DNA of 63,365 nt, counting the filler, from Basidiobolus ranarum (lineage: Eukaryota): the NCBI GenBank assembly GCA_040143965.1. It is 30 parts of 30 records of this genome, joined end to end, with 100 filler letters (N's around TTAATTAATTAA, not from the genome) between each part and the next. Parts side by side here need not be neighbours in the genome. Positions count along the whole stretch, not along the records: positions 52,925 to 54,933 come from JASJQH010010803.1; 29 more parts are not named here. One strand, 5' to 3'. The position numbers and the translations under genes are program-made. Every line of letters starts with the position of its first letter. Positions within the stretch are counted from its first letter, which is position 1. The notes under the pieces are model-generated. The model was not told the DNA's origin. It made no database searches and was given only the letters and a program-made list of their open reading frames with translations. Positions 6,373 through 62,888 of this stretch are shown here, one piece after another.

Positions 6373-8395
6373 GTATGTCTGATTAGTCAAGTATGTGCAT
6401 ATGTAAAGACTAAACACAATGAGATTCTTGTATATTAGACTCTCATTATGGCTGGAATACAAAGCTAAAAATATCTAAATAAAGGCATGCTTATTCATTT
6501 GAATTCCAACAGTAGTAAACCCAGTAATTTGCCATTCAAAAATTAGATTTTTGTGACAATTACCAGTAATTAAATGACCTTGAAAAGTTCCAGTTGAGGT
6601 TTGAGAGCTGTGTGTTTTATTTGCTGGTGTTTTGGCTTTATGAGAGATGCCAGATGCTGTACAAACTTCCAAATTTAGCAAGCTTCCAACTAGTGTACTT
6701 GGTTTCATGGTAAAATTAAGCCATTTTGCCAGTATATCAGCTAGTATATCTGACTCTGGAAATACAGATTGTTGTGACAGTGTGAACAATCAGGTAAGTG
6801 GCACAGCAGAGCCCAAACCCACTGGCTCTTTTGCTTTTCCCTTGAGTTTACTAACCTCCTTCTCCATGAGTACTTCTTTAGCTGCTTTTCTTTCTTTTCA
6901 AAGTCAATAATTGCATGAATTTTTGAGATTTTTCTTGAATAGGCCTCTACTAGCCAAATTGCCATTTGCTTGGAAAAACCCTGGATAAGCCACATGAATC
7001 AAGTCAAGAACCATCTGAGTCACATCTGGTCTTTGATTCTGCATTATTGGTTCAAACCGAGATGATTTTGGGCAAAATTATGCACAGTTTTCAAAATGTT
7101 AAACCACTCATCATCAGAGCAAGTGGCAGCAGCACTGATATTCAGAGTATTTTGGTTGGCTTGTTTTCCTATGACATTGGCTTACAGATTATTATGATGT
7201 TCCACCTGAGATTCCTTTGTGTAAAAAGTTCCATCCAAATTGTCAAAAAAGGGGTGTTCAATAGTTGGCAAAGCAGGCCTTTTGGAAGTTGATGGTCTTG
7301 TTGGTGTTTATCTTGAACTTTGCTCAACTATTGATTTACTGCATAATTGTGGGTTTATAGTCACTGTACTTGCACTACTGCTAGAGAGGAACACATCTGG
7401 TGGAACAATTAATGCTTCATCATTACTTGGGCTAGTGTTGGGCACATTAATGCCATCCAAAATGGACAGTAGATTGCTAGACTGCTCATCAAACAAGTCC
7501 TCTGTTCTTGTTGGTCTTTCACCTTTTGTGTCAGCAAGCTTTGGTTTGGAAGCAAATTTTGATTTATATTTTGAATACTTTGGAGAGGCAAGAATAATGT
7601 GGATAGAAATGCAACTTTAGTTGAGCCAGTATGTCCATAAAACTTTGAGGACATGCTGCTAGATGTTGACCTAGGTCATTCCAGTACTGATTGTAGTTTA
7701 TGGCAAGATGAAGCAGAAGACTCTGGTTTTATTACAGACTCTTTATCATTGGCAAGCATTAGTCCACTCATAACCCACAGTAAAGAAAGCAGCTTTGATC
7801 ATTGTGGAGTGGAGAGTTCAATCCAATCTTAGCAACCAGGCATGTATTAAAGTTTCCTACACTTTTACTCCAGTTGATTGGCAACTGTTGCTTGCCACAG
7901 ATCCAGTACCAGTGAAAAACACTTTCCAACTGTATGCCTTATAATCCTTCAGTAATTACACTACTTCATGTCCAAATAGTTGTTTGACTTTCACCAGTGA
8001 GCTGAATAACCTGAAGTCATGTACTGTTAGCAAATAACTGACAAGCACTGAATCAGGTTCATATTTTTCATATTTGGAGCACATGCCACTGATTTGACAT
8101 CATAATTTTTTGATATAATCACCCAAATATAGATTATTGATCCATTACCAAAGTATTCACCGTAAAGCTGATGGTATTACCAAGATACTTAAAACATTTC
8201 ACCATCAGAATCTGAAAAGTAAAGGTTTCTTGGAGAACACATATGATCATGCATTTGCATTGGCACTGGATGGTTTCTCACTGAACCAATATACCATTGA
8301 AAATACTTGCTGGCCAATAATTTTAATCAACTTAAATCTTCCTCCTTCTAAATGGTATAAGAGTCATAATATTTTGATACTATCCATTATATCTA
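6373..8395. mobile_element. CACTA/CMC-type DNA transposon composite: 3' piece (+), ORF2 (-, ~6580-7570), transposase N-terminus (+, ~7600-8395)
   Basis: FALALDGF...CWPIILINLNLPPSKWYKSHNILILSII is a Transposase_21/Tnp2-like motif. The layout is collinear with 52925-54933. Confidence 0.85.
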
Positions 8396-8495: not shown

Positions 8496-8924
8496 CCACA
8501 AAGCACCCTCAGTAGTATCACACTAGAAGGAGGTACAAAAATAGTCAAAGTGCTTGAGCAGTATTTTCAAAAGTATGAAGGAAAAAATGCAGTGCAAGTA
8601 TGCAGAAAGTGGTGTCAGAAGAAGAATATTCAACTTGACATTCAGTCTGGTGTTGACCATGCAGATATCTGAGAAGAACTTTATATACAGTGGCACAATA
8701 TTGTGGGGTATCCAATAGATAGCTGGAAGAATGCTGATTCAGCAACATTGATACAATGGAGGGCTTTGATGGAGATATTGATACAAACTTTTGCTGGGTA
8801 TGAGCTAAACCTTGGGTATGAAGAACTCTATTAAAATATTCAGGAGAATATATCAAAGAGACTATGGATTTTGAAGGTGACAAATTAGTGTTCAAGTGGT
8901 AGTTGTGTAAAATTTGAGTTACAT
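8496..8924 (+). mobile_element. DNA transposon ORF2 C-terminal remnant
   Basis: Homologous to 34125-34555 and 62250-62680. One frame reads YFQKYEGKNAVQVCRKWCQKKNIQLDIQSGVDHADI. Confidence 0.75.
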
Positions 8925-9240
8925 TGCCTGAAAATGATCTTTTTCATGAAAAGCTATGTCTCTTGACTTGAGTAGACTTGAATTTCCAGTGTCATATAGC
9001 CTGTACCCCCTTTGTTCCATCATACCACCCATAAAAATATTTATCTGGTATGTTTGGTCTAGTTTTGACCTCCTCTGGCATGGAATCATTACATATGCAG
9101 TACTTTGCAAACCTCTGAGATTACCCACATCAGGTTTACTTCCAAACTAAGCTTGGTATGGTGTTGTAGCCAATAGAGATTTAGAATACTTTCTTAATAT
9201 ATATTGCATTTGCAACCATTTCAGCTCAGATCTGAGTGAA
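8925..9240 (-). mobile_element. Ty1/copia integrase C-terminal remnant
   Basis: TPYQA.FGSKPDVGNLRG...RSKLD...GYRLYD...SRDIAFHE. Confidence 0.8.
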
Positions 9241-9823: not shown

Positions 9824-10517
9824 CCCTAACAGAAATTTGAGAACTGTTATCATAAGAAAGCCATCACAGCTTTAATCCATTTTGGATTAACCATTTACTT
9901 ACTGTCACAAAATCATCGAGTTAAATTTGATTTTAATCAATTTTTTTAGTGCAGGAGTAAAATTTTCAGATCTTTCAGAATAGTTGCACATGATTGGCTA
10001 CAAATCAGAGAACTATGGATGCACACATGTGCAAAGAATCTAACTCAAATTTTGCAAATTTACCTCTTGAATGCCAATTTGTCATCTTCAAAATCCCTGG
10101 TTTCTTTGATATTTTCACCCAAATATTTGTATACAGTTCTTTATACCCAAGGTTTAGCTCATATCCAACATGAGTTTGTATTAATATCTCCATCAAATCC
10201 TACCATTGTATTAATGTTGCAAACTCAAAATTCTTCCATCTATCTGGCAGATTCCCTGCATTATTGTGCCACTCTGTTCTAAGTTCTTCCCAGATATCTG
10301 CATGTTCAACACCAGACTGAATGTCAGTTTGAATGCTGTTATTCTGGAGCCACTTTCTGCACACTCACATTGTGTTTTCCCTTCACACTTTTGAAAATAC
10401 TCTTCAAAAACCTTTATTATTTTTATACATCTTTCAAGTGTGACACTACTAAGGGTGCTTTACAGTGTTTGTATGGCTTTTTGCTTGCCTTTGAGTTTGG
10501 GGCTAATTTCAACACTT
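9824..10517 (-). mobile_element. DNA transposon left end (TIR CCCTAACAGAAAT at 9824) with ORF2 3' end, inserted in a gypsy integrase remnant
   Basis: The gypsy motif KTSAYHPRTN (9750-9790) is cut off at the TIR. The same end occurs at 29240, 34767 and 62888. Confidence 0.85.
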
Positions 10518-10759: not shown

Positions 10760-12425
10760 CCATCAGAGAACCATCACAATATTGTTGGCTTGCATTCTGC
10801 CAGGGGTTTTGATGATGTGATGGCGGTTTCTTGACGGTATCTTGGCAGTATTCATACATGTTAACATATTGATCCTCAAATTTGGCATGTGTTATTCAAT
10901 ATCCAGCAATTTTTGCAAAAATATAATTTTTGAATGGCAAATTACTGGGTTTACTGCTGTCGGAATTTGAATTAATATGCATGCCTTTATTTAGATATTT
11001 TAGGCTTTGTATTCAAGCCATAATGAGAATCAAAAAATACAAGAATCTTGTTGTTTTTAGTCTCTACATATGCACATATTTGACTGATTAGACATAACTC
11101 AACAACATCAATATGCTTTACCAGCAAACTAACAGTAGAAAAATTCCTAAATATCTGAAATTTTGAATAGGACTGACACTTGGCATATAGCTGACTCTTG
11201 TTACCGTTCACAATGAGAATAAGCTCTTGGATTTTGGCAAATTTTTGTAAAGAATTCAGCCAATATATCCCCAACTTGCAGTCAACAAATGTCCTGCCAC
11301 AAGAAGATATGTCATTGCTTGAATAGATTACCCCATGGCTATACAAAATCTTTGCACAGTTGTTGTATCTTCCTGAGATCAGTCAATGTGCATTGATGCT
11401 GTAAGAATATATTAACAATATCCGCAAACAACTCCCAATGTTGCCAATACATATCAGGCAGAAATCTTATCAAAATTCCACTTGAATATATACAAATCCA
11501 ATACTTCCAGTCTTTGTATTTGAATAAATGCCTAGATGAGTGGATATTGATGGGAGTCCTGGTAAAATATGATGGTATCTTGATATTTTCCAGCATTTTC
11601 CCAATTGATTTAATCTTTGATTCTATCTCAAATGGCTCATTCATATTGAATTTTCCACTATATAACTGAGTAAGTAGTATAGGAATGTTGTTGAATAGTA
11701 AGTGCATAGTTCCTAATGGGAAGCTTTAGCTACAGCTGATGGCCTTTAGCAATATATTCTTAGACTTATGATTAATACCAAGTTTGATGTTGGACTGACT
11801 ATTTGGTGAATTGATATCAGTGATCATATTGAAGTCTTACTGGGACCTTGATGGTAAAATCATGAAGTTTCGTGTTATATTTGGATAGTAGTAATGCATA
11901 TGCCTGTTAGAGTAAACTCCATTCATTTGACAAAATCTACAGCAAGATAGTGCATTGTGCCTGTAAAAACCTCTACGTTTACTGAAGGCAGGAGTGTCAC
12001 CAAAACATACAAGAATATTAGCTTTAATAAAATATTCACGCATGTGAACCCCATTAGGCAACCATACAAATTCCGCAATCAAAGGCTACAAGAAGCTATC
12101 TATTAGCACTGGTGATTTAGGTCTAGATATGATGGATAGTATCAAAATATTATGACTCTTATACCATTCAGAAGGAGGGAGATTTAAGTTGATTAAAATT
12201 ATTGGCCAGCAAGCCTTTCAAATGGTATACTTCTTTAGTGAGAAGCCATCCAGAGCCAATGCAAATGCACAATCATATGCGTTCTCAAAGAAACCTTGAC
12301 TTTTCAGATTCTGGTAGTGACATCCATCAAATATATTGGTAATAACATCAGGTTTATGGTGAGTACTTTGTTATTGGATCAATGATCTATGTTTGGGAGA
12401 TTTCATCAAAACTTTAAGATGGGGA
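10760..12425 (-). mobile_element. CACTA/CMC-type transposase remnant with internal deletion
   Basis: FGDTPAFSK, CCRFCQMNG, MHLLFNNIP, FKYKDWKYWI. Confidence 0.9.
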
Positions 12426-12428
12426 ATC

Positions 12429-12638
12429 TATTGGGAAAATATGGGCTGTTTGGAGGAACTTTAGAAAAGTGGAGTTGTTAATAGCTTTGTGAGATAATTG
12501 TTTATTGACCAGAAATTAAGCATTTAAACATTTTGGTGGAAATACAGAAAACTAACACTGGGGTTGTGTTCAGAACATCTGTGGGAGTAAAATGAGCTAT
12601 CTTTGGGGCAATTTGGACGAGTTTGAAATTTCCAATAT
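12429..12638 (-). repeat. Copia LTR family B, 3' part, inserted in the transposase
   Basis: Close match to the reverse complement of 25675-25885. Confidence 0.85.
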
Positions 12639-15237: not shown

Positions 15238-15641
15238 TGTTGAAGTTAGCATTGCCTATATGCCTATAAAGTAACATATAGCTTAGTGTTTAGTTTGTTC
15301 AAATTAGCAGTACCTAAGCACCTATATAGTGATATATAGCTTAGTTTTTAGTGATCCTATAATTCAATAAGATATTACCCATTATTTGGAATTGGAATTT
15401 ACTTGTATTATTTTTACTAACTTAGAAGTTCTCAGATATATGAGTTTTCAAACTTGTATTAGAAGCCTCAAGCTTTACACCCATGTTCCTGGGACCTCTC
15501 TTAGCACATTCTACACATTGGTTTATATACATCTTGACAAAATGATAAATATCAGCTCTCAACTGAAACAACCAATAGGTGACAACCATGTATTTCTAGA
15601 GTTCTCCAAATCATTGCAACAGGGTCCCAAATACTTTAACA
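15238..15641 (+). mobile_element. Solo copia LTR (family A) with 5-bp target-site duplication GCCTC
   Basis: TGTTGAAG...TACTTTAACA, flanked by GCCTC at 15233-15237 and 15642-15646. The first ~58 bp are duplicated internally. Confidence 0.9.
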
Positions 15642-20048: not shown

Positions 20049-20396
20049 TGTTAAAGTATTTGGGAGCCTGTTAGAAGTGGTGTAGGGAATTAGAGGAATT
20101 GGTGGTTTTCACTTATTGATTTATTGAATAGAAAGTTGACATTTATAGTTTTGTCAAGACGTAAACAAACTAATGTGTAGAATGTGTTAAGGAAGGTCAC
20201 AGGAACATGTGTGCAAGGTTTGGGGCTTCTAGCACAAGTTTGAAAAATTTATATATCTGAGAACTTCTAAGTTGGTAACAATATTCCAAGTAAATTCCAA
20301 TTGAGAATAATTAAAAATATCTTAGTGAATTATAAGATAACTAAGTACTAAGCTATATATGACTATATAGGTGCTTAGGCAATGCTAATTTCAACA
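20049..20396 (-). repeat. Copia 3' LTR family A (348 bp)
   Basis: TGTTGAAATTAG...TACTTTAACA on the minus strand, directly after the PPT AGTTGAGGGAGAG. Interrupts the transposase at AGAGTAAG; the uninterrupted copy is at 45881. Confidence 0.92.
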
Positions 20397-29239: not shown

Positions 29240-29579
29240 CTCTAACAGAAATTTGAGGATTGTTATTATAGGAAAACCATCTCAATTTTAATCCATTTGG
29301 GATTGACTATTTACTTACTGTCACAAAACTGTCCAGTTTGATTTGATTTTAATCAATTTTTTCAGTTTCAGGAGTGAAATTTCAAGATCTAGCAAAATAG
29401 TTGCACATGATTGGCTACAATCTCAGAGAACTACGGATCAACACATGCAAAAAATGTAACTGAAATTTTACACAATTACCACTTGAATGCTAATTTGTCA
29501 CCTTTGAAATCCTTAGACTCTTTGATATATTCTACTGAATATTTTTTATAAAGTTCTTCATCCCCAAGGATTAGCTCAT
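29240..29579 (-). mobile_element. DNA transposon left end inserted in copia pol
   Basis: CTCTAACAGAAATTTGAGG (one change from the TIR), directly after copia IFRYLK. Confidence 0.85.
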
Positions 29580-29679: not shown

Positions 29680-30420
29680 TTTGAACTAATTTGTTTGTGT
29701 GATAATCTGATGGTATTTCTAGGAAAGCTGCAAGACAGACTTCTTGGTGAGATAGATCAAGATATGCAGTATTATTGTTTTAGCCATGAGGTAATCTATT
29801 CAAGCAATGACATAACTACTTGTGGCACAAGATTTATTGACTACAAGTCAAGGATATTTTGGCTGAATTCTCTATGGAAATTTGCCAAAATCCAAGAGCT
29901 TATTCTCATTGTGAACAGTAACAAGAGTCAGCTATTTGCCAAGTGTCAGTGATATTCAAAATTTGAGATGTTTACCAACTTTTCCACCATTAGTTTGCTG
30001 GTAATGCATATTGATGTTGTTGAGTAATGTCTGATTGGTCAAGTATGTGCATATGTAGGGACTAAACATAACAGGATTCTTGTATTTTTTGATTCTCATT
30101 ATGGCTGGAATAAAAAGCCTAAAATATCTCAATAAAGGCATGCATATTTAATTGAATTCCTGCAGCAGTAAACCCAGTAATTTGCCATTTGAAAATTATA
30201 TTTTTGCAAAAATTGCCAGAAATTAATAATGCATGCCAAATATGCGGATCAATATTTTAACATGTATGAATACCATCAAAATACCATCAAGAAACCACCA
30301 TCACACCCTCAAAATCTCTGGCAGAATGCAAGCCACTAATATTGTGATAGTTCTGTGATGGTTTTGCAATCCAGAAGGGTGGATCCAATCCAGATCAAAT
30401 CAATTTTATTTTTGTTAGGG
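29680..30420 (+). mobile_element. DNA transposon transposase 3' end and right TIR (ATTTTTGTTAGGG)
   Basis: Homology with 51391-52325 ends exactly at the GGG at 30420. Confidence 0.88.
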
Positions 30421-30717
30421 ACTTGGTTATCTCATAATTCACTAAGATATTATCCATTATTCCCAATTGGATTTTACATGGAATACTTTTACCAATTTGG
30501 AAGTTCTTAGATATATAGATTTTTCAAACTTGTGCTAGAAACTCCAAACTTTGCACACATGTTTCTGGGAGCTTTCTTAACAAATTCTACATGTTATTTT
30601 GCTTACAACTTGACAAAAGTATAAATGTTAACTTTCCACTTAATAATCAATCAGTGAAAACCACCAATTCCTCTAATTCTCCAAATCACTTCTAACAGGC
30701 TCCCAAATACTTTAACA
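30421..30717 (+). repeat. LTR family A lacking its first ~50 bp (interrupted by the DNA transposon)
   Basis: Matches 20049-20396 and ends CCCAAATACTTTAACA. Confidence 0.88.
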
Positions 30718-31529
30718 GTACTTGTTTGTAAAACTTTTTGCTTCTTCATTTTGTCTTAATATGGACCACACATTTATATCCATTTATACTTGCAAGTGTT
30801 GATGCTTTCAAACTTTAGCTCAAGCTCTTAGAGGCCTCTTGGTCCTTGATCCTAAAGCCTACCTATACAGGGAACTCAGTAAACTTTTTAGTTGAAATGA
30901 ATGTGGTATATACAATTTATGATTTTCATACCACAAATCAATAATTGGATTATAATCTAAGACTTGGCGAATGTGCAAGCAGTGATTGTAGTACAAACTT
31001 GGATGGCTTTGAAGTATCAAGTTTGATTGCCAACTGTTAGTGAAGATTATATAACATGAATAAATATTCCAATTTAGTACTTAGTATGTTTATAGTTCAA
31101 GTCATAGATTTACAACAAAGAACTGCAATGGAAATCTTTGATATATCAATATGGAAAGAGAAATGATATCTTAATTGAGTTTTCCCTTTGCCATTGTGAA
31201 TAATTGTCACTTTCAATGCTATGGTCGAAATGAAAGAGTCATGACTATTGAAGTAGTCAAAATTTCTCACATCCAAGTTCTTATTGCGAGAATCATCAAT
31301 GAGACCCATTCCCGTTCAGTAATTTTAGATGCGCAAAGACGTATAAGAGTCAAGAAGTATAGTTTTGGAATGTTACTCTGATCCACGCTATAAGATAGGG
31401 GTTTCTATAAGTTGTCGGTCCATGAGATTTGCCCCAGTTATATGAACTAGCTAAGCGCACAATGAGGTCAGGATCTGAATATTTATTAGAATGAAACTTC
31501 GAAGATTTTATTGCTATGAGACCAGACCT

Positions 31530-33809: not shown

Positions 33810-33944
33810 NNNNNNNNNNNNNNNNNNNNNNNNNNNNNNNNNNNNNNNNNNNNTTAATTAATTAANNNNNNNNNNNNNNNNNNNNNNNNNNNNNNNNNNN
33901 NNNNNNNNNTATGATAAAGATAATCAACTTCAACAATTTCACCA

Positions 33945-34767
33945 TGGAACCTGGTACACCAGTTGGAAGAGTGCTAAATACGGAAGTTTATCCAACACCT
34001 GGCACCTCCCAACAAGCCAAAACACCAGCAAATAAAACTCACTGCTCTCCAACCTCAACGGGAACTTTTCAAAGTGTTGAAATTGGTGCCAAACTTAAAG
34101 GCAAGGAAAAAGCTGCACAAACACCACAAAGCACCCTCAGTAGTGTCACACCACAAGGATGTACAAAAATAGTCAAAGTGCTTTAGGAGTATTTTCAAAA
34201 GTATGAAGGGAAAAATGCAGTGCAAGTATGCAGAAAGTTGCTTCAGAAGAAGATCATTCAACTTGACATTCAGTTCAGTGTTGACTATGCAGATATCTGG
34301 GAAGAACTTAATACAGAGTGGCACAATACTGCAGGGTATCTACCATATAGCTGGAAGAATATTGACTCAGCAACATTAATACAATGATGGGCTTTGATGG
34401 AGATAGTGATACAAACTCATGTTGGGTATGAGCTAAACCTTGCGTATGAAGAACTGTATAAGAATATTCAGGAGATTATATCAAAGAGACTAGGGATTTC
34501 AAAGATTTACAAATTAGCATTCAGGTGGTAATTATGTAAAATCTGGGTTACATTCTTTGCACATGTGTTGATCCATAGTTCTCTGAGATTGTGGCCAATC
34601 ATGCCCAACTATTTTGCAAGATCTTGAAATTTCACTCCTGAAATTGAAAAAATGATTAAATCAAATCTAACTTGATGATTTTATGATGGTAAGTTAATGG
34701 TCAATCCCAAATGGATTAAAATTGTGATGGTATTCCTACAATAACAATCCTCAAATTTCAGTAAGGG
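33945..34767 (+). mobile_element. DNA transposon ORF2 C-terminal half and left TIR
   Basis: EPGTPVGRVLNTEVYPTPGTSQQAKTP overlaps the 55034-55386 and 6580-6720 copies. Ends AATTTCAGTAAGGG at 34767. Confidence 0.85.
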
Positions 34768-44480: not shown

Positions 44481-46045
44481 CATTGATCCAATACCAAAGT
44501 ACTCGCCGTAAAGCTGATGGTATTACCAATATACTTGATGGATATCACAACCAGAATCTGAAAAGTCAACGTTTCTTTGAGAACATGTATGATCATGCAT
44601 TTGCATTGGCTCTTGATGGTTTCTCACTAAACAAATATATTGTTGGAAAGGCTTGTGGCCAATAATTTTAATCAACTTAGATCTTTCTCCTTCTGAATGG
44701 TATAAGAGTCATAATATTTTGATACTATCCATCATATCTGGAACTAAATCACCAGTGCTTATAGATAGCTTCTTGGAGCCTTTGATTGAAGAATTTGAAT
44801 GGTTATCTAATGGGGTTCAGATGGGTAAATATTTTATTAAAGCTAATATCATTCTATTTATTGGTGATACTCCTGACTTCTGTAAACTTTGAGATTTTTG
44901 TGGGCACAATACACTATATTGCTGTAGATTTTGTCAAATCAATGGAGTTTACTCTAACAGGCATATGCATTACCACTATCCACATACAATACTAAACTTC
45001 ATGATTTTACCATCAGGAGCCCGGTAAGATTTCAATGTGATCACTAATATGAATTCACCAAATAGTCAGTCTAACATCAAACTTGGTATTAGCCATAAGC
45101 CTAAGATTATATTGCTAAAGGGGATCAGCTGGAGCCAGAGCTTCCCGTTAGACACCATGAGCTTACTATTCAATAACATTCCAATACTACTTACTCAGCA
45201 ATATATTGGAAAATTTGATATGAATGAGCCATGAAAGATAGGATCAAAGTGTGAATTGATTGGAAAATGCTTGAAAACGTCAAGATACCATCATAATTTA
45301 CCAGGACCCCCATCAATTCTCACTCATCTAGGTGCTTATTCAAATGCAAAGACTGGAAGTATTAGATTTGTATATATTCAAGTGGAATTTGTAAAGATTT
45401 CTGCCTGATAATTATTGGCAACATTGGGAGTTGTTTGTTGATATTGTTAATATATTCTTATGGCATCAACTCACATTGGCAGAGCTCAGGCAGATACAGC
45501 AACTATGGGAAGATTTTGTAATTGGATATGAAAAACTTTACTACAGGTTTAAAGAAGATAGACTGAATCTATGCCGGTATTCAATACATTCCCTGCTGCA
45601 TCTTTCACAATGCATAGAGATTATAAGCCCTTGCTATACATTCTGGGAGTTCCCAATGGAGTGCACCTGTGGTAAAATGATGTTTCATGTGAAATTGTCA
45701 GTACTACCATATGCTAATCTGATTAACAATGTATCAGCATAATCAGTGATGGACGTAATGTGATGGATTAAGGAGACTCCAGAGTATATTAACCTGCCAA
45801 CAAAGGGCTCTTTTCAATGTGCTCATGGGTTTTACATTGTTTGAGCACAATAACAGCAACAAAGCCCAATCCATGGACACAGAGTAAGTACCTCTATAAT
45901 TGTACTGATTTGCTTGTGCAATAATCTGATGGTAGTTTTAGGAAAGCTGCAAGACAAACTTCTTGGTGAGATAGATGGAGATATGCAGTATTATTGTTTT
46001 GGCCATGAGGTAATCTATTCAAGCAATGACACATCTACTTGTGGC
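44481..46045 (+). mobile_element. CACTA/CMC-type transposase, longest continuous remnant
   Basis: ALDGF, IDSFLEPLIEEF, IGDTP, FPLDTM, YSIHSLLHL and FWEFPME occur in order. Confidence 0.92.
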
Positions 46046-46596: not shown

Positions 46597-47667
46597 AGGA
46601 TGTGTGCAAAGTTTGGGGCTTCTTTGAAAAATCTATATATCTGATAACTTCTATGTTGGTAAAGATATTCTAAGTAAATTCCTTGTGAGAATAATGGATA
46701 TAATCTTAGTGAATTATAAGATAACTAAGTACTAAGCTATATATGAGTATATAGGTGTTTAGGCAAAGCTAATTTCAACAACTTCAACAAATACTGCTAG
46801 GAGATCCTGAAGTCAGAAAATTTGCTTCCTTTATAGAACAAGCTGAGAAGCCCTCCCTTGCCTACAAGGAATACTTGGTGAACCTTTGGCAGCAATATCT
46901 TCAGAAACACACTCCTTTTATGCTTTATGTTAATCCTAGCCTCATTCCACTTGTTTCTATTGTTGACAATCCATTTTTATCTTTGTTACTCCCTCCCACT
47001 CCACTTAATAGTATCTTAGACTCTACTGACTTAACTTTTCTACTTTGCAACATTCATGCCAACACTCCAGAACTTCACACCTTAATTAAGAAACTACAAA
47101 AGTAGTTATGGCTTCTTTGTTTTGTTTGAAATAAAGATTTCACCTGTTGGTGACTGTCTCCCCCCCCCCTCTAACAGATCTTTCTTGATTGATTTAGCAA
47201 AGGAATGTGGCATACCTCTCATCACCAGTATACCAGCTCAAGGCAATTCAAATCCTGATGAAATCATGATTGATGATCATCTATCAATAGATTAACCCAC
47301 CAGATAAAATGGTATCATTATCATCACAATCGCCACTACCAAATAAAAACAGCATCAAATACCCTCTTCTTAAATACAATTAATTTGGTATGCCAAATAA
47401 CAAATCTAAAACTTAACCCTAAGGTTAAAATTTGTGATTTTGTCAAGATGTGAACAAACTAACTTGAAGAATATGTTAAGGAAGGTCCCAGGAATATATA
47501 TGCAAGGTTTGGGGCTGCTAGCATAAGTTAGAGCAATCTATATATCTGAAAACTTCCAAGTAAATTCTGATTGAGAATAGAGAGTGATATCTTGGTGATA
47601 TAGAAAATAACTAATTACTAATCTATAAGGCACTATATAGGTGTTGAATCAATGCTAATTTTCAACA
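46597..47667 (-). repeat. Two partial LTR-A copies (46597-46780 and ~47440-47667) around an unassigned CpG-poor segment
   Basis: Both end ...GCTAATTT(T)CAACA, the reverse complement of the LTR-A start. Confidence 0.8.
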
Positions 47668-51390: not shown

Positions 51391-52713
51391 CCCTAACAAG
51401 AATAAAAGCATTTTGATCCAGTTTGGATCCACCCTTGTGGATTGCACTACTGTCAGAGAGCCAACACAATATTGGTGGCTTGCATTCTGCCAGGAATTTT
51501 GATAGTGTCACAGTGGTTTCTTGACAGTATTTTGATGGTATTCATAAATGTTAAAATATTGATCATGTTATTTGACATGCATTATTTGATTTCTGGCAAT
51601 TTTTGCAAAAAACTAATTTTTGAATAGCAAATTAGTAGGTTTACTACTGTAAAAATTTGAATTAATATGCATGCCTTTATTTTTATATTTTGGGCTTTGT
51701 ATTCCAGCCATAATGAGAATCAAAAAATACTGAAATCTTGTTGTGTTTAGTATCTACATATGTACATACTTGACTGACCAGACATAACTCAACAACATCA
51801 GTATGCTTTGCTGGCAAATTAATGGTGGAAAAATTGCTAAACATCTGAAATTTTGAATAGCACTGATACTTGGCCAAAAGCTGACTCTTGTTACCGTTCA
51901 CAATGAGAATAAGCTCTTGGATTTTGGCAAATTTCTGTCAAGAATTCAGCCAAAATATTCCCTACTTGCAGTCAACAAATGTCCTGCCACAGGCAGCTGT
52001 GTCATTGCTTGAATAGATTACCCCATGGCTAAGACAATAATACTGCATATCTTGATCTATCTCATGAAGAAATCTGTCTTGCAGCTTTCCCAGAAATACC
52101 TTCAGATTATCACACAAACAAATTGTTCCAAATTATAGAAGTAGTTACTCTGTGTCCATGGATTGGATTTTGTTGCTGTTATTGTGCTCAAACAATGCAA
52201 AAACCCATGAGCACATTAAAAAGAGCCCTTTGTTGGAAAGTTAATATACTCTGGAGTCACCATAACCCATTGCATTACATCCATCACAGATTTTGCTGCT
52301 ACATTATTAATCAGATTAGCATATGCCCTAACAAAAATAAAATTGATTTGATCCAGACTCAAATCCACCCTTCTAAATCACAAAACCATCAGAAAACTGT
52401 ACAATATTGGTGACTTGCATTTGGCCAGGGATTTTGATGATATGACAGTGGTTTCTTGATGGTATTATAATGGTATTCATGCATGTTAAAATATTGATCC
52501 ACATATTTGGCATGCTTTATTAGTTTCTGGCAATTTTTGCATAATGTAAGTTTGGAATGGCAAATTACTGGGTTTACTGCTGTAGGAATTCAAATTAATA
52601 TGCATTCCTTAATTTAGATATTTTAGGCTTTGTATTCCAGCCATAATAAGAGTCCAAAAATATAAGAATCTTGTTGTGTTTAGTCTCTGCATATACCCAT
52701 ACTTGACTGATCA
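51391..52713 (-). mobile_element. Two nested right ends of the DNA transposon (TIRs at 51391 and 52326)
   Basis: CCCTAACAAGAAT and CCCTAACAAAAAT each begin the same subterminal sequence. The second interrupts the first copy's transposase at YANLINNV. Confidence 0.88.
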
Positions 52714-52924: not shown

Positions 52925-54933
52925 TTTGTATTTGGATAGTAGTAATGTGTATGCCTGATTGAGTAGACTCCATTGATTTGACAAAATCTACAGCATGAGA
53001 GTGAATTGTGCCCACAAAAACCTCCAAGTTTACTAATGGCAGGAGTGTCACCAATACATACAATAATATTAGCTTTAATAAAATATTCACCCATCTGAAC
53101 CCGATTAGATAACCATTCAAATTCCACAATCAAAGGCCCCAAGAAGCTATCTATAAGCACTGGTGATTTAGGTCCAGATTTGATGGATAGTATCAAAATT
53201 TTATGAATCTTATACAATTCAGAAGAAGGAATATTTAACTTAATTTAAATTATTGGCCAGCAAGCCTTTCCAAAGGTATTTTTGCTCTGCAAGAAACCAT
53301 CCGGAACCAATGCAAATGCATGATCATATATGTTCTCAAAGAAACCTTGACTTTTCAGATTCTTGTAGTGATATCCGTCAAGTATATTGGTAATACCATC
53401 AGGTTCATGGTGAGTACTTTGGTATTGGATCAATTATCTATATTTGGGTGATTTCATCAAAACTTTAAGATGGTGAATCAATGGTATTTAAGCCAAATAT
53501 GAGCAATATTTACCTGATTCAGTGATTGCCTATGGTGTGCAGACAGTACATGACTTCAGGTTTTTTTAGATCACCGGTCAAAGACAAACAACCATTTGGA
53601 CATGAAGGTAGTTTAATTATTGATGGATTAAAAGTCATACAATTGACAGGTGTTTTCCACTTGTACCAGGCCTGTGGCAAGCAACAGCTGCTAATGAACT
53701 GAGGTAAAGCTCTAAGAAAACCAACAAACACCTGGTTGCTAAGATTGGATTGAACTCTCCACTCCTCAAAAATCAAAGCTGCTTCCTTTACTGCAAGTGT
53801 TGTGAGTATACCAATGCTTGCCGGTAACAAAGAGTCCCAAGCAAAACCATTGTCTACTTCTTCAACTTCCGATATTCTACCATCAGTACCGGAATAAGCA
53901 AGGTCAACATCTAGCAGCATGTCCTTAAAGTTGTTCTGGACTTACTGGTTTGACCAAAGTTGCATTTCTATCTACATCATTCTGGTCAAATAACTGTGCT
54001 AACTCCACTGTATCTTGACTTTTGGCATTACATCAAGTTTACCATCTGAAAATTTCAATGCCATTCAAAAAGCATTAAAAATCTAGGTCAAAATCAGCTT
54101 CCAAGCCAAAGCCTGCTGGTACAAAAGGAAAAAAAACCAGCAAGAACAGAGGACTAAATTGATGAGCAGTCTAGCAATCAACTATCCACTTTGGAAGGCA
54201 TTAACATGCCAGAAATTAAATGAAGTAATGATGAAGCATTAATGAACTTACCAGATGTGTTCCTTTCCAGCAATAGTGCAAGTAAAAAGATTCTAATTGC
54301 CTGATTATATAGTAAATCAACAGTTGAGCAAAGTTCAACCAAAACACCACCAAGACCATCAACTTCTAACATGGCTACTTTGCTCACTATTGAGCAACCC
54401 TTCACAGAAAATATGGATAGAGTTATTACAACAAGAGAATTGCAGGCCAAATACCATATTGATTTGTATGCTATTAAAAGTAAAAACTACAAAGTCACTA
54501 TACAGGCCATGATTAGTAATAATGCCACAACATTGCAATTAATGCAGGATTTGGAAGCAACTAGTCAACAGTTAGACAGTCACTCAATAATGATACAAGA
54601 CCTTTAGAATGCTGTACTTGAGCTACAGCATCATACTGCCTCCTCCATCCATTCTCATATGGGATTTCAATCAATCCTGCACCATACATATGAACATCGC
54701 TGTGACAATCTAGCAGAGCAAAATATGTGTTGGATCATTAAGCCTAAACACCAACCTGAAATTGCTTGGGCATATGAGAGTAGAAATCTCGTAGGAAAGC
54801 CGGCAAACCAAAAGACTCTGAATGTCAGAGCTGCTGTCACTTGCTCTGATGGAGAGTGGTTTAACGTTTTGGAAACTGTGCAGAATCTTGCCCAAAACCA
54901 CCTGGATTTGAGCCAATTGTGGAAAAACTAAAA
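52925..54933. mobile_element. DNA transposon centre: transposase N-terminal half (-, to ~54040) and divergent ORF2 N-terminal half (+, from ~54100)
   Basis: Minus strand: CPNGC, PDGF, GPKSP, IGDTPA, CCRFC. Plus strand: DEQSSNQLS...SDGEWFNVLETVQNLAQNHLDLSQLWKN. Same arrangement as 6580-8395. Confidence 0.88.
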
Positions 54934-55033: not shown

Positions 55034-55386
55034 GGTTGGAGAGCCATGAGCTTTATTTGCTAGTGTTTTGGCTTGTTGAGAGGTGCCAGGTGTTTGATAA
55101 ACTTCCAAATTCAGCACTCTTCCAACTGGTGCACCAGGTTCTATGGTGAAATTAAGCTTTTTTGCCAGTATATCTGACTCTGGAAAGGCAGATCTTTGTA
55201 ATGGTGTGAAGAATTTGGCAAGCGGGACAGTAGAGCCTAAACTCACTGGCTCCTTTGCATTTCCCTTTGATTTACTAACTTCCTGCTCCTTCAGTACTTC
55301 TTTAGCTGCTTTTCTTTCTTTTCCAAGTTGATAATTGCATACATTTTTGAGATGTTTCATGAATAGGCCTATACTTGCCCAATTGA
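55034..55386 (-). mobile_element. DNA transposon ORF2 middle segment
   Basis: NWASIGLFMKHLKNVCNYQLGKERKAAKE... is collinear with 6600-6960. Confidence 0.8.
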
Positions 55387-56091
55387 ATGGCTGAGGAACT
55401 ACCACCTTACTGTGAAGATGATACTATGTTAGCACTTGAAGACAACCCTTTCATACTACAAGACTGGAGCCTTATGAAAGGACACTTGCTAGAAAACTAT
55501 GGAGAACCCTGCCATTCCTACTCAATCTATGACTTGGAAGACTTTGCCAAAACCAGCTTATCAAAGATGCCTACCAAACAATATATCCAAGAACTTGAAA
55601 GTATTGGAGCACCTTTGATCCAACAAGGTGTTATCACTGAAGTTACCCTTACTATATACTTATTGAATGCTTTACCCCAACACCTACTGACAAAAGTAGA
55701 TCAAGAAACTACCGGCCAATCAGCCTCTGATATTCCATCTCTTGCTAGTGTGAAGAAAGTCCTCCTAGCAAGTCAGGAGAACTCAGCACTCATGAAGATG
55801 CTCCAGAAGAGCAGGGAACAACAACAACCAAGACCAAAAGAACCTTTGACACAAAACAGAACAGTTGATGTTGAGGAAGAACTATCCAACATTAGCAAGA
55901 AACTTGAACATCTCACTTTGAAGATTGAGAGCAAGTCCTACCAAGGAGGAACCTATCAATTTTCCTACCCATCTAATTGTGTATGGTGTGACTCAACCAA
56001 GCATTCCAAGAAGGACTGTCCTGAATTGAATGAACTACTTGACAAAGGAGAGCTCCAATTGGACTCAGGCGGCCTTGCACACAGATATTAA
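55387..56091 (+). mobile_element. Retrotransposon (gypsy-like) Gag fragment with CCHC zinc knuckle
   Basis: CVWCDSTKHSKKDC (CX2CX4HX4C) after a helical/coiled region. CpG-poor. Confidence 0.78.
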
Positions 56092-56883
56092 ATTCTTGAC
56101 AATATCTGGAACATGTAGTACATTCTTAAAACTACACACTTTCTCTTCAGAAGCTCCAGTCAAATTGACCTGAATTGTTCCCATTCCAATGGCTTCCAAT
56201 CAGTGGTCATCACCCATAAAAACCTTTCTATTTGAGATATCTTCATATTTCACAAACCAATATTCCTCAAGTGTGCAATATTGGGAGGCTCCAGAATCAA
56301 TATACCACACCTGAGAATCCTTGTTGGTAGTCATAGATAGAGCAGATATGAACAAGTGATCTTCTGTTATAGCCATATTTCCAGATTCAGTAAGTTTTTC
56401 TGCTTTTATAATTCTTTTAACACATTCTTTGCATAAACAGCAAGTTCTTTTACATTAATCACAGAATGTATTACTTTTCTTAAAGTGCTTTTGACCTTTA
56501 TGCCAAGATTATCCATAGGCTATTAAAACATTTTCTTCATTCTTTTGGTTAGATACTAATTTGCATAAATCTTCATCCAGCAGTCTGCCAAATACATAAC
56601 TTAAGGTCAATTTTTCAGATCTTGATTCAGGAGCCATTTCAAGGCTCTGGAACTCTTATGGCAGACCATTGATGAATGTAGCTATGATATCTTGATCAGT
56701 GGTAGGTACTTCAATCCCTTCCACTTCATCCACTAAAATATTGACTCTATTGATTAGTGATTTAATGTCTTCTCCTGGCTTCATCTTTGAGTTAAAGAAT
56801 TGTTCTCTTATAAACATCATGTTGGCAACAGAGCATGTTTGGTAGGTGTCTTCCAAGGCTTTCCATACCTTCTTGGCAGTTTT
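56092..56883 (-). mobile_element. Ty1/copia gag-protease remnant
   Basis: TAKKVWKALEDTY...MKPGEDIKSLINRV...NGLP, a decayed zinc knuckle, and WYIDSGASQ. Confidence 0.9.
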
Positions 56884-57042
56884 TGTTGAAATTAGCATTG
56901 CCTAAACACCTATATAGTCATATATAGCTTGGTACTTAGTTATCTTATAATTCACTAAGATATTATCAATTATTCTCAATTGGAATTTACTTAGAATATT
57001 TTTACCAACTTAGAAGTTCTCAGATATATAGATTTTTCAAAC
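56884..57042 (+). repeat. LTR family A 5' part inserted in copia gag
   Basis: TGTTGAAATTAGCATTGCCTAA matches the LTR-A start. Confidence 0.9.
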
Positions 57043-57805: not shown

Positions 57806-59150
57806 GTGTGTTTGAATTCCATGATCATGGGCTCCAAGAATCTACTTATAAGCACTAGTGATTTAGGCAAAGATATGAAGGATAGTATCCAAATATCATG
57901 ACTCTCAAACCATTCAGAAGGAGGAAGATTTGAGTTAATTAAAAATTGTTGGGTAGCAAGCCTTTCCAATGGTATATTTGTTTATTGGGAAACCATCCAG
58001 AGCCAATGCAAATGCTTGATCATATGTCTTCTCAAAGAAATCTTGACTTTTCCAATTCTGGTACTTATCCATCAAGTAGATTGATAATACCTATAGCTTT
58101 ATGGTGGGAACTTTAGTACCAGAACAATGATCTCTGTTTGGGTCATTTCATCAAAATTTTAACACAAGGAATCTACAAAATATGTGCTAAATATGAACAA
58201 TATATACCTAAAATAGTACATATTCAATACATTCAGTCTTTGCATATAAATAAATGCCTAGATGAGTTGATATTGATGGAAGTTCTGGTAAAATATGCAG
58301 CTATCTTGATGTTTTTAAGCTTTTTCCCAATATATTCAAACTTTGATCTTATCTTGAATGGCTCATTCAGATTCAAAGTTTCCACCTTACAGTGGAGTAA
58401 GTATTATTGAAATGTTGTCAAATAGTAAGTGGATAATGCCTAATGAGAAACTCTGGCTTCCACTGATCACCTTTGGCAATAAACTCTTAGGCTAATGGCT
58501 AATCCCAAATTTAATGCTAGACTGACTATTTGGTGAATTTGATATCAGTACTCATGTTGAAATCTGAATGGCCTTTTGACAGTATAATCATGGAGTCAAG
58601 AGTTGTATTTGGATAGTAGTAATGTGTATTATTGCTGGTGTAAATTCCATCGAATTGACAAGACCTACAGCAAGATAGTTGATTCTACCCATGAAAACTT
58701 TCAACATTACTGATGGCATGAATGTCACCAGTACAAGTAAAGGTACTAGGTTTAAATTAATATTCACCCATTTGAACCTGCTCAGTTAACCATTCAATTT
58801 GCACAATCAAAGGCTCCAAGCAGCCATCCATAAGCACTGGTGATATAGGCCTGGATATGATGCATAGTATTAAAATATTATTACTGTTATACTATTCATA
58901 GGAGTAACAACTAGGTTTATTGAAATTATTGGCCCGCAAGCCTTTCCAATGCTATATTTGTTTAGTGAGAAACCATCCATAGCCAATATAAATGCATGAT
59001 CATATGTCTTCTCAAAGCTGTTGAAAGTCTGGTGACTTGTGGTACAAGCAGTAATTCCCAAAGAGGAAAATATGAAGTATGGTGACTGCATCTGAACACA
59101 AAGCCCTAACAAAAATAAAATCGATTTGATCCGGATCGGATCCACCCTCC
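57806..59150 (-). mobile_element. Two tandem transposase remnants and a right TIR at 59104
   Basis: The ALDGF region occurs twice (~57990, ~58975). CCCTAACAAAAATAAAATCGATTTGATCCGGATCGGATCCACCC at 59104. Confidence 0.85.
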
Positions 59151-61358: not shown

Positions 61359-62888
61359 CTACTATATAGCTGAGTAAGTAGCATTGGAATGTTGTTGCAT
61401 AGCACATGCTTAGTGCCCAATGGGAAGCTCTAGCGCAGCTATTCCCCTTTGGCAATATAATCTTAGGCTTATGGCTAATATCAAGTTTGATGTGAGACTA
61501 ACTTTTTTGGTGAATCAATATCAGTGATCATGTTGAAATCTGACCAGGCTCTTGATGGCAGAATCATGGAGTTCAGTGCTTTACTTGGATAGTAGTAATG
61601 CATATGCCTGATTGAGTAGACTCCATTGAATTGACAAAATCTGCAGCAAGATAGTACATTGTGCCCACAAAAACCTCTAACTTTACTGCTAGTAGGAGTG
61701 TCAGCTATACATACAATGATATTAGCTTTAATAAAATATTCACCCATCTGAACCCCATTGGATAACCATTCAAATTCCGCAATCAAAGGCTCCAAGAAGC
61801 TATCTATATGTACTGGTGATTTGGGTCCACATATGATGGATGGAATCAAAATAATACAACTCTTAAACCATTCAGAAGGAGGAATATTTAAGTAAATTCA
61901 AATTATTGGCCAGCAAGCCTTTCCAACAGTATATTTGTTTAGTGAGAAATCTTCCAGAGCCAATGAAAATGCATGATTATACATGTTCTCAAAGAGACTT
62001 GACTTCTGAGATTCTGGTAGTGATACAGGTCAAGTATATTGGTAATACCATCAGCTTAATGGTGAGTACTTTGGTATTGGATCAATGATCAATATTTGGG
62101 TTATTTCATCAAAACTTTAAGACAGGGAATCAACAATATGTAAGCCAAATATGAATATATTTACCTGATTCAGTGATTGCAAATTGTGTGCAAACAGTCA
62201 ACACCTGATCGCTCAGATTGGATTAAAAAAAGCCACACAAGCACCTTAAAGCACCCTCAGTAGAGTTGCATTAAAAGGATGTACAAGAATAGTCAAAGTG
62301 CTTGAGTAACATTTTCAAAAGTATGAAGGGGAAAATGCAATGCAAGTATGAACAAAGTGGTTGCAGAAGAAGAATATTGAACTTGGCATCCAGTCTGGTG
62401 TTGATCATGCCAATATCTGGGAAGAACTTAATACAGAGTGGTGCAATATCACAGGGTATCCACCAGATTGCTGGAACAAAGTTGATTCAGAAATGTTAAT
62501 ACAACAGTGGGCTATGATGTAGATAGTGATACAAACTAGTGCTGAATATGAGCTAAACCCTGGGTATGAAGAACTCTGTAAAAACAATCAGAAGAATATA
62601 TCAAAGAAACTAGGGATTTCAGAGGTGACAAATCAGCATTGAAGTGGTAAATGTGTAAAATTTGAGTCAAATTTTTTGCACATTTGTTGATCCATAGTTC
62701 TCTGAGATTGTAGCCAACCATTTGCAACTATTTTGCAAGATCTTGAAATTTCACTCCTGAAACCAAAATAATTGATTAAAATCAAGTTTAACTGGAAATT
62801 TTTATGACAGTTAGTCAATAGCCAATTCCAAATGGATTAAAATTGTGATGGTTTTGTTACAATAACAATCATCAAATTTCTGTTGGGG
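61359..62888. mobile_element. DNA transposon pieces: transposase (-, to ~62200), ORF2 3' end (+) and left TIR ending at 62888
   Basis: GPKSPVHIDSFLEPL, CCRFC. The end AATTTCTGTTGGGG is the TIR with one change. Confidence 0.85.

Follow-up and report, generated by a model that had tools for sequence, protein, structure and literature searches.

The DNA considered here, referred to below as the window, is a stretch of 63,365 bases from Basidiobolus ranarum (assembly GCA_040143965.1), composed of 30 contigs of 2,007-2,024 bp with N/TTAATTAATTAA spacers between them. One of these contigs, at positions 52925-54933, carries the beginnings of two genes that point away from each other, namely a Tnp2-type transposase gene on the minus strand and a second gene, designated ORF2 (open reading frame 2), on the plus strand. 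It is interpreted as the central part of a dead, high-copy, autonomous cut-and-paste transposon family of the CMC group (CACTA/EnSpm-Mirage-Chapaev) in a Basidiobolus-type fungus. We hold the layout and the family assignment to be very probable, and the explanation as a whole, in which the second of the two genes encodes an accessory protein, to have somewhat better than an even chance.

The divergent gene pair

In the flagged contig, the transposase gene is represented by its first ~330 codons in decayed form (52925..53920, minus strand), which were recognised from ORF pieces and from a PF02992 match on 52925-53244 (E 8.3e-07). This region extends from a Cys/His-rich N-terminal part into the beginning of the Transposase_21 domain, and it is collinear with nine other contigs. 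The start codon is an ATG at 53920-53918 on the minus strand; in the contig beginning at 6373 (contigs are named here by their first position) the gene runs on the plus strand from 7653. On the other side, the first 242 codons of ORF2 follow in one frame from a candidate ATG at 54206 (54206..54933, plus strand), as indicated by ORF pieces and by a match to the B. ranarum protein KAK9674757 (P0010), which is 72% identical to this part and has the same first Met. This part of ORF2 opens with an acidic segment rich in Ser/Thr/Pro, continues with a coiled-coil-like stretch and ends with the first half of a helical block. It has four in-frame stops, at 54221, 54302, 54605 and 54929.

The two start codons are separated by a spacer of 285 bp in the pairwise alignment (53921..54205), which is presumably a two-way promoter region, and a 76-bp stretch of it (about 53995-54070) is absent from the 6373 copy. 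The distance of roughly 100 bp given in an earlier note on this DNA is correct for the gap between the open frames but not for the distance between the starts, which is 285 bp from ATG to ATG and ~76 bp less in the 6373 copy. Both copies have a further open frame that spans the spacer and the beginning of ORF2 (54087-54242, plus strand; 7409-7675, minus strand). It contains MSSLAI..., ends with ...VMMKH and a stop, and may be an upstream short ORF or a product of chance.

The contigs 52925-54933 and 6373-8395 are diverged copies with 77-84% identity that align collinearly from the beginning of the transposase gene through the spacer into ORF2, with the pairwise blocks 53176-53983 = 8394-7591, 54069-54471 = 7581-7180 and 54785-54917 = 7178-7046. 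The ORF2 copy of the latter contig (6577..7616, minus strand; alignment and ORF pieces) includes the N-part, the helical block and the basic linker and is cut off at 6577, and 313 bp of ORF2 (54472-54784 of the 52925 copy) are absent from it. Diverging from it is the second copy of the transposase start (7653..8395, plus strand), with a PF02992 match on 8119-8394 (E 4.6e-06). The earlier note had reported the divergence of a Tnp2-like transposase and a decayed second ORF in these two contigs. We confirmed this and added a third contig, 61359, in which the ORF2 3' part (62227..62888, plus strand; contig overlaps) immediately adjoins a piece of the transposase gene (61361-62198, minus strand) and is followed by the ORF2-side terminus at 62888. 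This contig represents a copy with an internal deletion in which the two genes still diverge. Three contigs (52925, 6373 and 61359) contain parts of both genes arranged in this way, and the head-to-head arrangement is real, being seen in three independent copies.

At 6577 in the contig 6373, the truncated 3' side of ORF2 meets a C-terminal fragment of the transposase (6375-6573, equal to 30027-30226 in the same orientation). This junction arose either by rearrangement, by a deletion between neighbouring copies or as a chimera of the assembly.

The best-kept transposase core in the window was found at 11342-12430 on the minus strand, where 363 codons can be read through in one frame. The HMMER check with PF02992 that the earlier note had proposed gave a match to Pfam Transposase_21 (Tnp2) of 52.6 bits (E 4.3e-14) against a cut-off of 28.6, and DUF1258 (PF06869), the C. 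elegans transposase group linked to Mirage, scored lower on the same stretch, with 39.9 bits against a cut-off of 33.1. The PF02992 score in the flagged contig itself was 28.8 bits. Another copy covers the core and the region beyond it with frameshifts (44481..46045, plus strand) and scored 37.6 bits over the read-through 44482-46044. DUF4218, also suggested earlier, and all Pfam families other than Transposase_21 and DUF1258 gave no match to the transposase read-throughs at E <= 0.01.

The translations show the motifs LDGF, GDTPA, CCRFC, IHSLLH and FPME in this order. The LDGF and GDTPA aspartates and CCRFC lie in the 11342-12430 read-through, and IHSLLH and FPME in the 44481..46045 copy. According to the accessible part of Kojima 2025 (PMC12730594), the CMCT clade (EnSpm-Mirage-Chapaev-Transib) has the order D, D, C(2)C, H(3-4)H, E. 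The series from LDGF to FPME fits this order provisionally, the residues being assigned by eye in the translations, and the Glu of FPME is presumed to be the catalytic one. As part of the layout and family assignment, the gene very probably encodes a Tnp2-type DDE transposase of at least 800 residues.

When assembled from overlapping pieces, ORF2 comprises ~545 codons. Its middle part, at 55034..55386 on the minus strand (contig overlaps), contains the end of the helical block, the basic linker and a Ser/Thr/Pro linker. The last ~205 codons were found at 33911..34531 on the plus strand (overlaps and profile match), with a YPTPxTSQ linker, a conserved C-terminal domain and a stop codon at 34529-34531, and another copy of this domain lies at 8496..8925 (plus strand; contig comparison). 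The contig overlaps agree with the assembly that had been proposed earlier from 54100-54933, 6580-7570, 55034-55386 and 33945-34520. Moreover, two B. ranarum proteins span the joins: P0015, in which the helical block is unbroken, and P0010, in which the N-part is joined to the C-terminal domain.

Over eight pieces from six contigs, the ORF2 frame had 19 stops in 1,217 codons, compared with 350 stops in 6,085 codons in the other five frames; the pieces were picked for looking open, and the contrast is somewhat inflated by this choice. The single pieces had 1-5 stops per 98-209 codons, except for the middle piece of 117 codons, which had none. Several of the in-frame stops are TGA codons that correspond to Trp in sister copies. 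ORF2 is a real, decayed protein-coding gene inside the element.

In the contig 55034, the ORF2 piece is interrupted at 55386, where a gag-like ORF of a retroelement sets in (55387-56050, plus strand). This ORF starts with MAEELPPYCEDD... and has a CX2CX4HX4C zinc knuckle, and in Pfam it gave only a weak CCHC row (E 0.045).

Ends of the element and state of the family

By overlaps, the transposase arm was followed from 53920 to 52925, 11875 to 11342, 45520 to 46045 and 29826 to 30420 (~2.65 kb), and the ORF2 arm from 54206 to 54933, 7032 to 6577 (also 55386 to 55034) and 34075 to 34767 (~1.87 kb), giving a rebuilt element of ~4.8 kb. Both arms end at sharp boundaries. Four termini were found on the transposase side (30420, 52326, 51391, 59104) and four on the ORF2 side (34767, 62888, 29240, 9824), and the eight termini adjoin eight unrelated flanks. 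The pattern 5'-CCCTAACA...TGTTAGGG-3' is present at all eight ends, at some of them with single-change decay. Read outwards, both ends finish in ...TGTTAGGG, with 12 of the last 15 bases common to both. The element has a short imperfect terminal inverted repeat, 5'-CCCTAACA(G/A)AAAT. Since the two arms close with termini that form an inverted repeat, ORF2 lies inside the element and is not a neighbour of it. The element had been assigned earlier to the CACTA/CMC type. The CMC group was upheld by the PF02992 match (52.6 bits against 28.6), but the ends are not of the CACTA kind, as ends of CACTA/EnSpm proper (5'-CACTA, or at least 5'-CAC...GTG-3') were found at none of the eight termini, which are of the CCCTAACA type in all cases.

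On the ORF2 side, the subterminal region and terminus at 34532..34767 (plus strand; terminus comparison) are of the ...TGTTAGGG type, decayed to ...CAGTAAGGG. An ORF2 3' part with the terminus at 9824 lies at 9824..10517 and an ORF2 3' end with the terminus at 29240 at 29240..29579, both on the minus strand and both recognised by contig overlaps. Contig overlaps also placed the C-terminal part of the transposase with the subterminal region and terminus (...TTTTTGTTAGGG at 30420) at 29680..30420 on the plus strand, two more transposase-side ends (termini 51391 and 52326) at 51391..52713 on the minus strand, and the fourth terminus of this side at 59104..59148 on the minus strand, at a contig edge.

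Within 51391-52713, the last ~390 bp of the transposase arm are present twice in the same orientation, and the terminus 52326 abuts an inner transposase position (equal to 45708). This represents either a nested pair of copies or a rearrangement in tandem. The outermost six bases of the ends are CCCTAA/TTAGGG, as a single unit per end (30415-30420, 34762-34767, 62883-62888, 9824-9829, 52326-52331, 51391-51396, 59104-59109). This hexamer is the telomere repeat of many fungi and animals, and the likeness may be a coincidence. A solo-LTR-like repeat (LTR, long terminal repeat) of ~300-350 bp abuts the terminus 30420 and occurs in five contigs (30421-30718, 20049-20396, 15296-15641, 46600-46781 and 56883-57042). 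About 50 bp of the unit are missing from its copy at 30421, which would fit an insertion of the transposon into the repeat.

Each of the four ORF2-side ends has a 12-base motif, TGTGATGGTTTT, at a distance of 33 bp when up to two mismatches are allowed. Three transposase-side ends are readable far enough inwards, and two of these have the motif at 55-56 bp. Further copies resembling it, few in number, lie 66 bp (direct) and 115 and 140 bp (inverted) from the transposase-side end. The whole window had 27 matches at <=2 mismatches against 8.8 in shuffled sequences.

All-against-all comparison of the contigs indicated that most of them are mosaics of old repeats, and at least 100 bp of the transposon family was found in 15 of the 30. 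The G+C content of the contigs was 31-39%. In the whole window, the observed/expected ratio was 0.26 for CpG and 1.29 for TG and CA, and in-frame stops are often TGA or TAG at Trp codons. The CpG deficit, the TG/CA surplus and the stops at Trp codons are what deamination of methylated cytosines would be expected to leave behind in old repeats. The contigs stem from a fragmented assembly of a eukaryote, whose strong CpG depletion points to a history of cytosine methylation.

Relatives and possible role of ORF2

The C-terminal ~110 residues of ORF2 form a conserved domain with the signature DIWEElNxxWHxxxGYPPDxW...LxxWWxLxE. In a search that covered all 1.84 billion protein cluster representatives, only eight proteins matched a profile of the C-terminal part of ORF2 at E <= 0.001. 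Four of them are hypothetical proteins of Basidiobolus ranarum (KAK9753544, KAK9752637, KAK9687624 and KAK9674757), which are fragments of the same transposon family. The other four, P0006 (6e-16), P0007, P0009 and P0011, come from ENA or Logan assemblies and are unnamed, distantly related proteins 112-128 residues long. These are 24-38% identical, and the E, W, W and L columns are invariant. P0012, a sister of 238 residues, has the domain together with the upstream YPTPxTSQ and a basic Ser/Thr/Pro-rich region. When JGI metagenome contigs were scanned twice with alignments of the domain, 57 and 143 pattern matches came up, none of which was confirmed.

The copies in the window decayed neutrally after insertion, and the distribution of their differences over codon positions neither supports nor refutes coding. 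Evidence of past selection must therefore come from outside the window. A word-indexed search found P0013, an intact ORF of 189 residues that is 72% identical to the family. Because its frame is unbroken at this identity while the copies in the window carry stops, the sequence comparison suggests that the ORF2 gene was kept while the family diversified.

P0013 also raises the question of whether the ORF2 arm contains two genes on the same strand, one for the N-part and helical block and one of ~190 codons for the C-terminal domain. P0013 is a complete ORF that starts at the Met of 'MEPxTPV', all the distant relatives are in its size class, and no protein of 367-2000 residues with the C-terminal half of ORF2 was found in a length-restricted search. 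However, the frame crosses the supposed boundary without a stop in the contigs 55034 (117 codons, 0 stops), 6373 and 33910, and in the B. ranarum models P0004 and P0010 the domain is attached to upstream parts. This division into two genes is very improbable.

Another explanation is that an ancestor of the family captured a host gene, or several pieces of host genes fused together, and that ORF2 has been carried along since then as a passenger with no role in transposition. It has no detectable likeness to TnpA or to a known transposon protein. Its distant relatives, of 112-238 residues, cover only the last third, so that ORF2 appears composite, and capture of genes in either orientation is described for fungal DNA transposons in the accessible part of PMC12730594. 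On the other hand, ORF2 is found in all copies that extend far enough to include its place in the element and is intact in the 72%-identical subfamily. Its relatives are very rare (8 in 1.84 billion), unlike those of a conserved host gene, and the pair P0011 and P0012 resembles multiple slightly different copies. We consider a passenger origin unlikely.

The C-terminal domain of ORF2 is unnamed and predicted to be mostly helical. AlphaFold2 on two domain alignments gave five helices with pLDDT of 45.9 and 54.0, and Foldseek comparison of these low-confidence models with the PDB gave no match at E <= 0.001. The AlphaFold-Foldseek check advised in the earlier note thus returned weak models (pLDDT 46 and 54) and no PDB neighbour. 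VIA-align wide on the domain model gave a best Z of 6.0, with generic helical rows and no meaningful neighbour, and a homodimer prediction for two copies of the P0006 domain returned a score of 0.00 ('no answer'), which is uninformative either way. In ESM Atlas, the domain and the helical block adjoin unnamed multi-copy Basidiomycota clusters with scores of 0.91-0.96, which is a lead only. The low-confidence structure there puts the helical block near domains of the helix-turn-helix (HTH) type (TM 0.48-0.63), the sole hint of such a fold.

The profile of the domain was also compared with PDB chains, and a marginal match to the dynein light chain LC8 (PF01221) was obtained, with E 0.0096 and 18.6 bits over 46 ungapped residues. 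As LC8 is a dimeric hub protein, the match bears on the possibility that ORF2 is a regulator or counter-defence protein encoded by the element, which would act by protein-protein contacts (anti-silencing or recruitment of host factors) and not at the element ends. The conserved domain is helical and neutral to acidic, and the long disordered Ser/Thr/Pro-rich linkers with the conserved YPTPxTSQ resemble docking sites. The CpG ratio of 0.26 indicates that methylation-type silencing is probably active, and other fungal transposons carry anti-silencing genes, as described in the accessible part of PMC12730594. Nevertheless, ORF2 matched no known silencing-related family. PF01221 Dynein_light was matched by none of the 13 domain members at E <= 10, and the all-helical, low-confidence models are unlike the two-helix plus beta-sheet fold of LC8, so that the likeness is a weak lead. 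A regulatory or counter-defence function appears still a little less probable than a passenger origin.

The most economical reading is that ORF2 is the element's own helper and a counterpart of TnpA, and we regard such an accessory role as evenly balanced. ORF2 would be made from the shared two-way promoter, would enter the nucleus by means of the basic linker (pI about 9.9), and may self-associate through the coiled-coil-like N-part (pI 4.7 for the N-part of P0010; weak CCDC28 rows for the coiled-coil-like stretch). It could then help the transposase to find or pair the element ends, which is the part played by TnpA in En/Spm, with contact perhaps at the subterminal TGTGATGGTTTT motifs by the helical block or the C-terminal domain.

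Several observations weigh against this reading. The window contains no intact transposon copy, no 2-kb contig has both ends of one copy, and a target-site duplication is not readable. The differences between the copies in the window show no codon-position bias, with 181, 159 and 163 differences, summed pairwise, at positions 1, 2 and 3. The start of ORF2 is uncertain, as the 6373 copy has GTG in place of the Met codon and an open frame that extends further upstream. The pairing of ORF2 with a Tnp2 transposase is known from one family only. The conserved C-terminal domain is not basic but neutral to acidic (pI 4.9-6.9), and Pfam searches on all ORF2 pieces and relatives gave only chance-level rows, with no match to a TnpA-type or DNA-binding family. 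PF03004 Transposase_24 in particular was matched by no piece or relative. Of the earlier proposal that ORF2 is a DNA-binding accessory protein, the real second gene within the element was borne out, but the DNA-binding part found no backing in Pfam, in a Transposase_24/TnpA match or in the weak models. Direct sequence-specific DNA binding by ORF2 is doubtful.

Comparison with known transposons

Like maize En/Spm and the plant CACTA elements, the Basidiobolus element combines a DDE transposase of the Tnp2/Transposase_21 type with a second, non-catalytic protein. It also has short terminal inverted repeats and subterminal motifs that recur in both direct and inverted orientation, which resembles the CACTA architecture as given in the accessible part of PMC8978399, although the Basidiobolus motif copies are few. 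In maize En/Spm, the products from TnpA to TnpD come from one transcription unit by alternative splicing, as stated in the accessible part of PMC1636069. Compared with this arrangement, the layout is atypical, as the earlier note had proposed, since ORF2 is on the strand opposite to the transposase and has its own start. The Basidiobolus element further differs from En/Spm by its CCCTAACA termini in place of CACTA, by the lack of Transposase_24/TnpA likeness in ORF2, and by its small size of about 4.8 kb.

The animal TRC elements resemble it in several respects. In the part of DeMarco 2006 (PMC1636069) that is accessible, the elements SmTRC1 of Schistosoma and those of Tribolium and Aedes are ~4.7-5.2 kb long with a 2-bp target duplication, and the terminus of the Tribolium element begins with CCCTAGTAGC. 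They share with the Basidiobolus element the Transposase_21 domain, termini starting with CCC, a similar size and a second protein. SmTRC1 produces its extra proteins by alternative splicing of one unit, and the fast-evolving second protein SmTRC-PrA was proposed there as a stand-in for TnpA. In contrast, the second gene of the Basidiobolus element is on the opposite strand.

In fungi, Muszewska 2017 (PMC5751038, accessible part) noted a 'huge expansion' of CMC-EnSpm elements in Basidiobolus genomes, and CNIRT6 and CNEST of Cryptococcus were reported as fungal CMC elements (bioRxiv 10.1101/2025.05.19.654958, accessible part). They have a transposase with a DDE core, as does the present element, and the accessible parts of these sources describe them by the transposase alone, without a divergent second gene or the ORF2 domain. 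Likewise, no description of a divergent second gene in a CMC/CACTA/EnSpm element was found in the literature searched, which did not extend to Repbase, Dfam and most subscription journals. A tentative proposal, which we rate as rather unlikely, is that ORF2 represents a new accessory-protein family of a CCC-terminated fungal CMC branch, in which a 'WH-GYPP' domain, perhaps with an HTH-like helical block, would replace TnpA. Relatives would then be among the unnamed multi-copy 'hypothetical proteins' of other fungi, as the Basidiomycota neighbours in ESM Atlas hint. If this were true, divergent two-gene CMC elements would be a wider, undescribed class.

CMC/EnSpm elements are among the main genome-inflating repeats of Basidiobolus, according to the accessible part of PMC5751038. 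The anatomy described here (termini, subterminal motif and two divergent genes) makes the family annotatable, and ORF2, with its new conserved domain, is a candidate for a counterpart of TnpA outside plants. Should transposition depend on ORF2, there would be a second and independent case from which to ask why helper proteins are so often required in this superfamily, and if ORF2 is a passenger or a counter-defence gene, it would add to the genes carried by fungal DNA transposons. Either way, the gain for transposon biology is incremental and not a surprise.

A separate accessory gene beside a DDE transposase, with its own promoter and not necessarily on the same strand, is found in PIF/Harbinger and MuDR. 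These belong to other transposase superfamilies, and their accessory proteins are Myb-like and MURB, respectively, to which ORF2 is unrelated as far as Pfam shows. PIF/Harbinger and MuDR serve as a working model of the way in which a two-gene DNA transposon functions.

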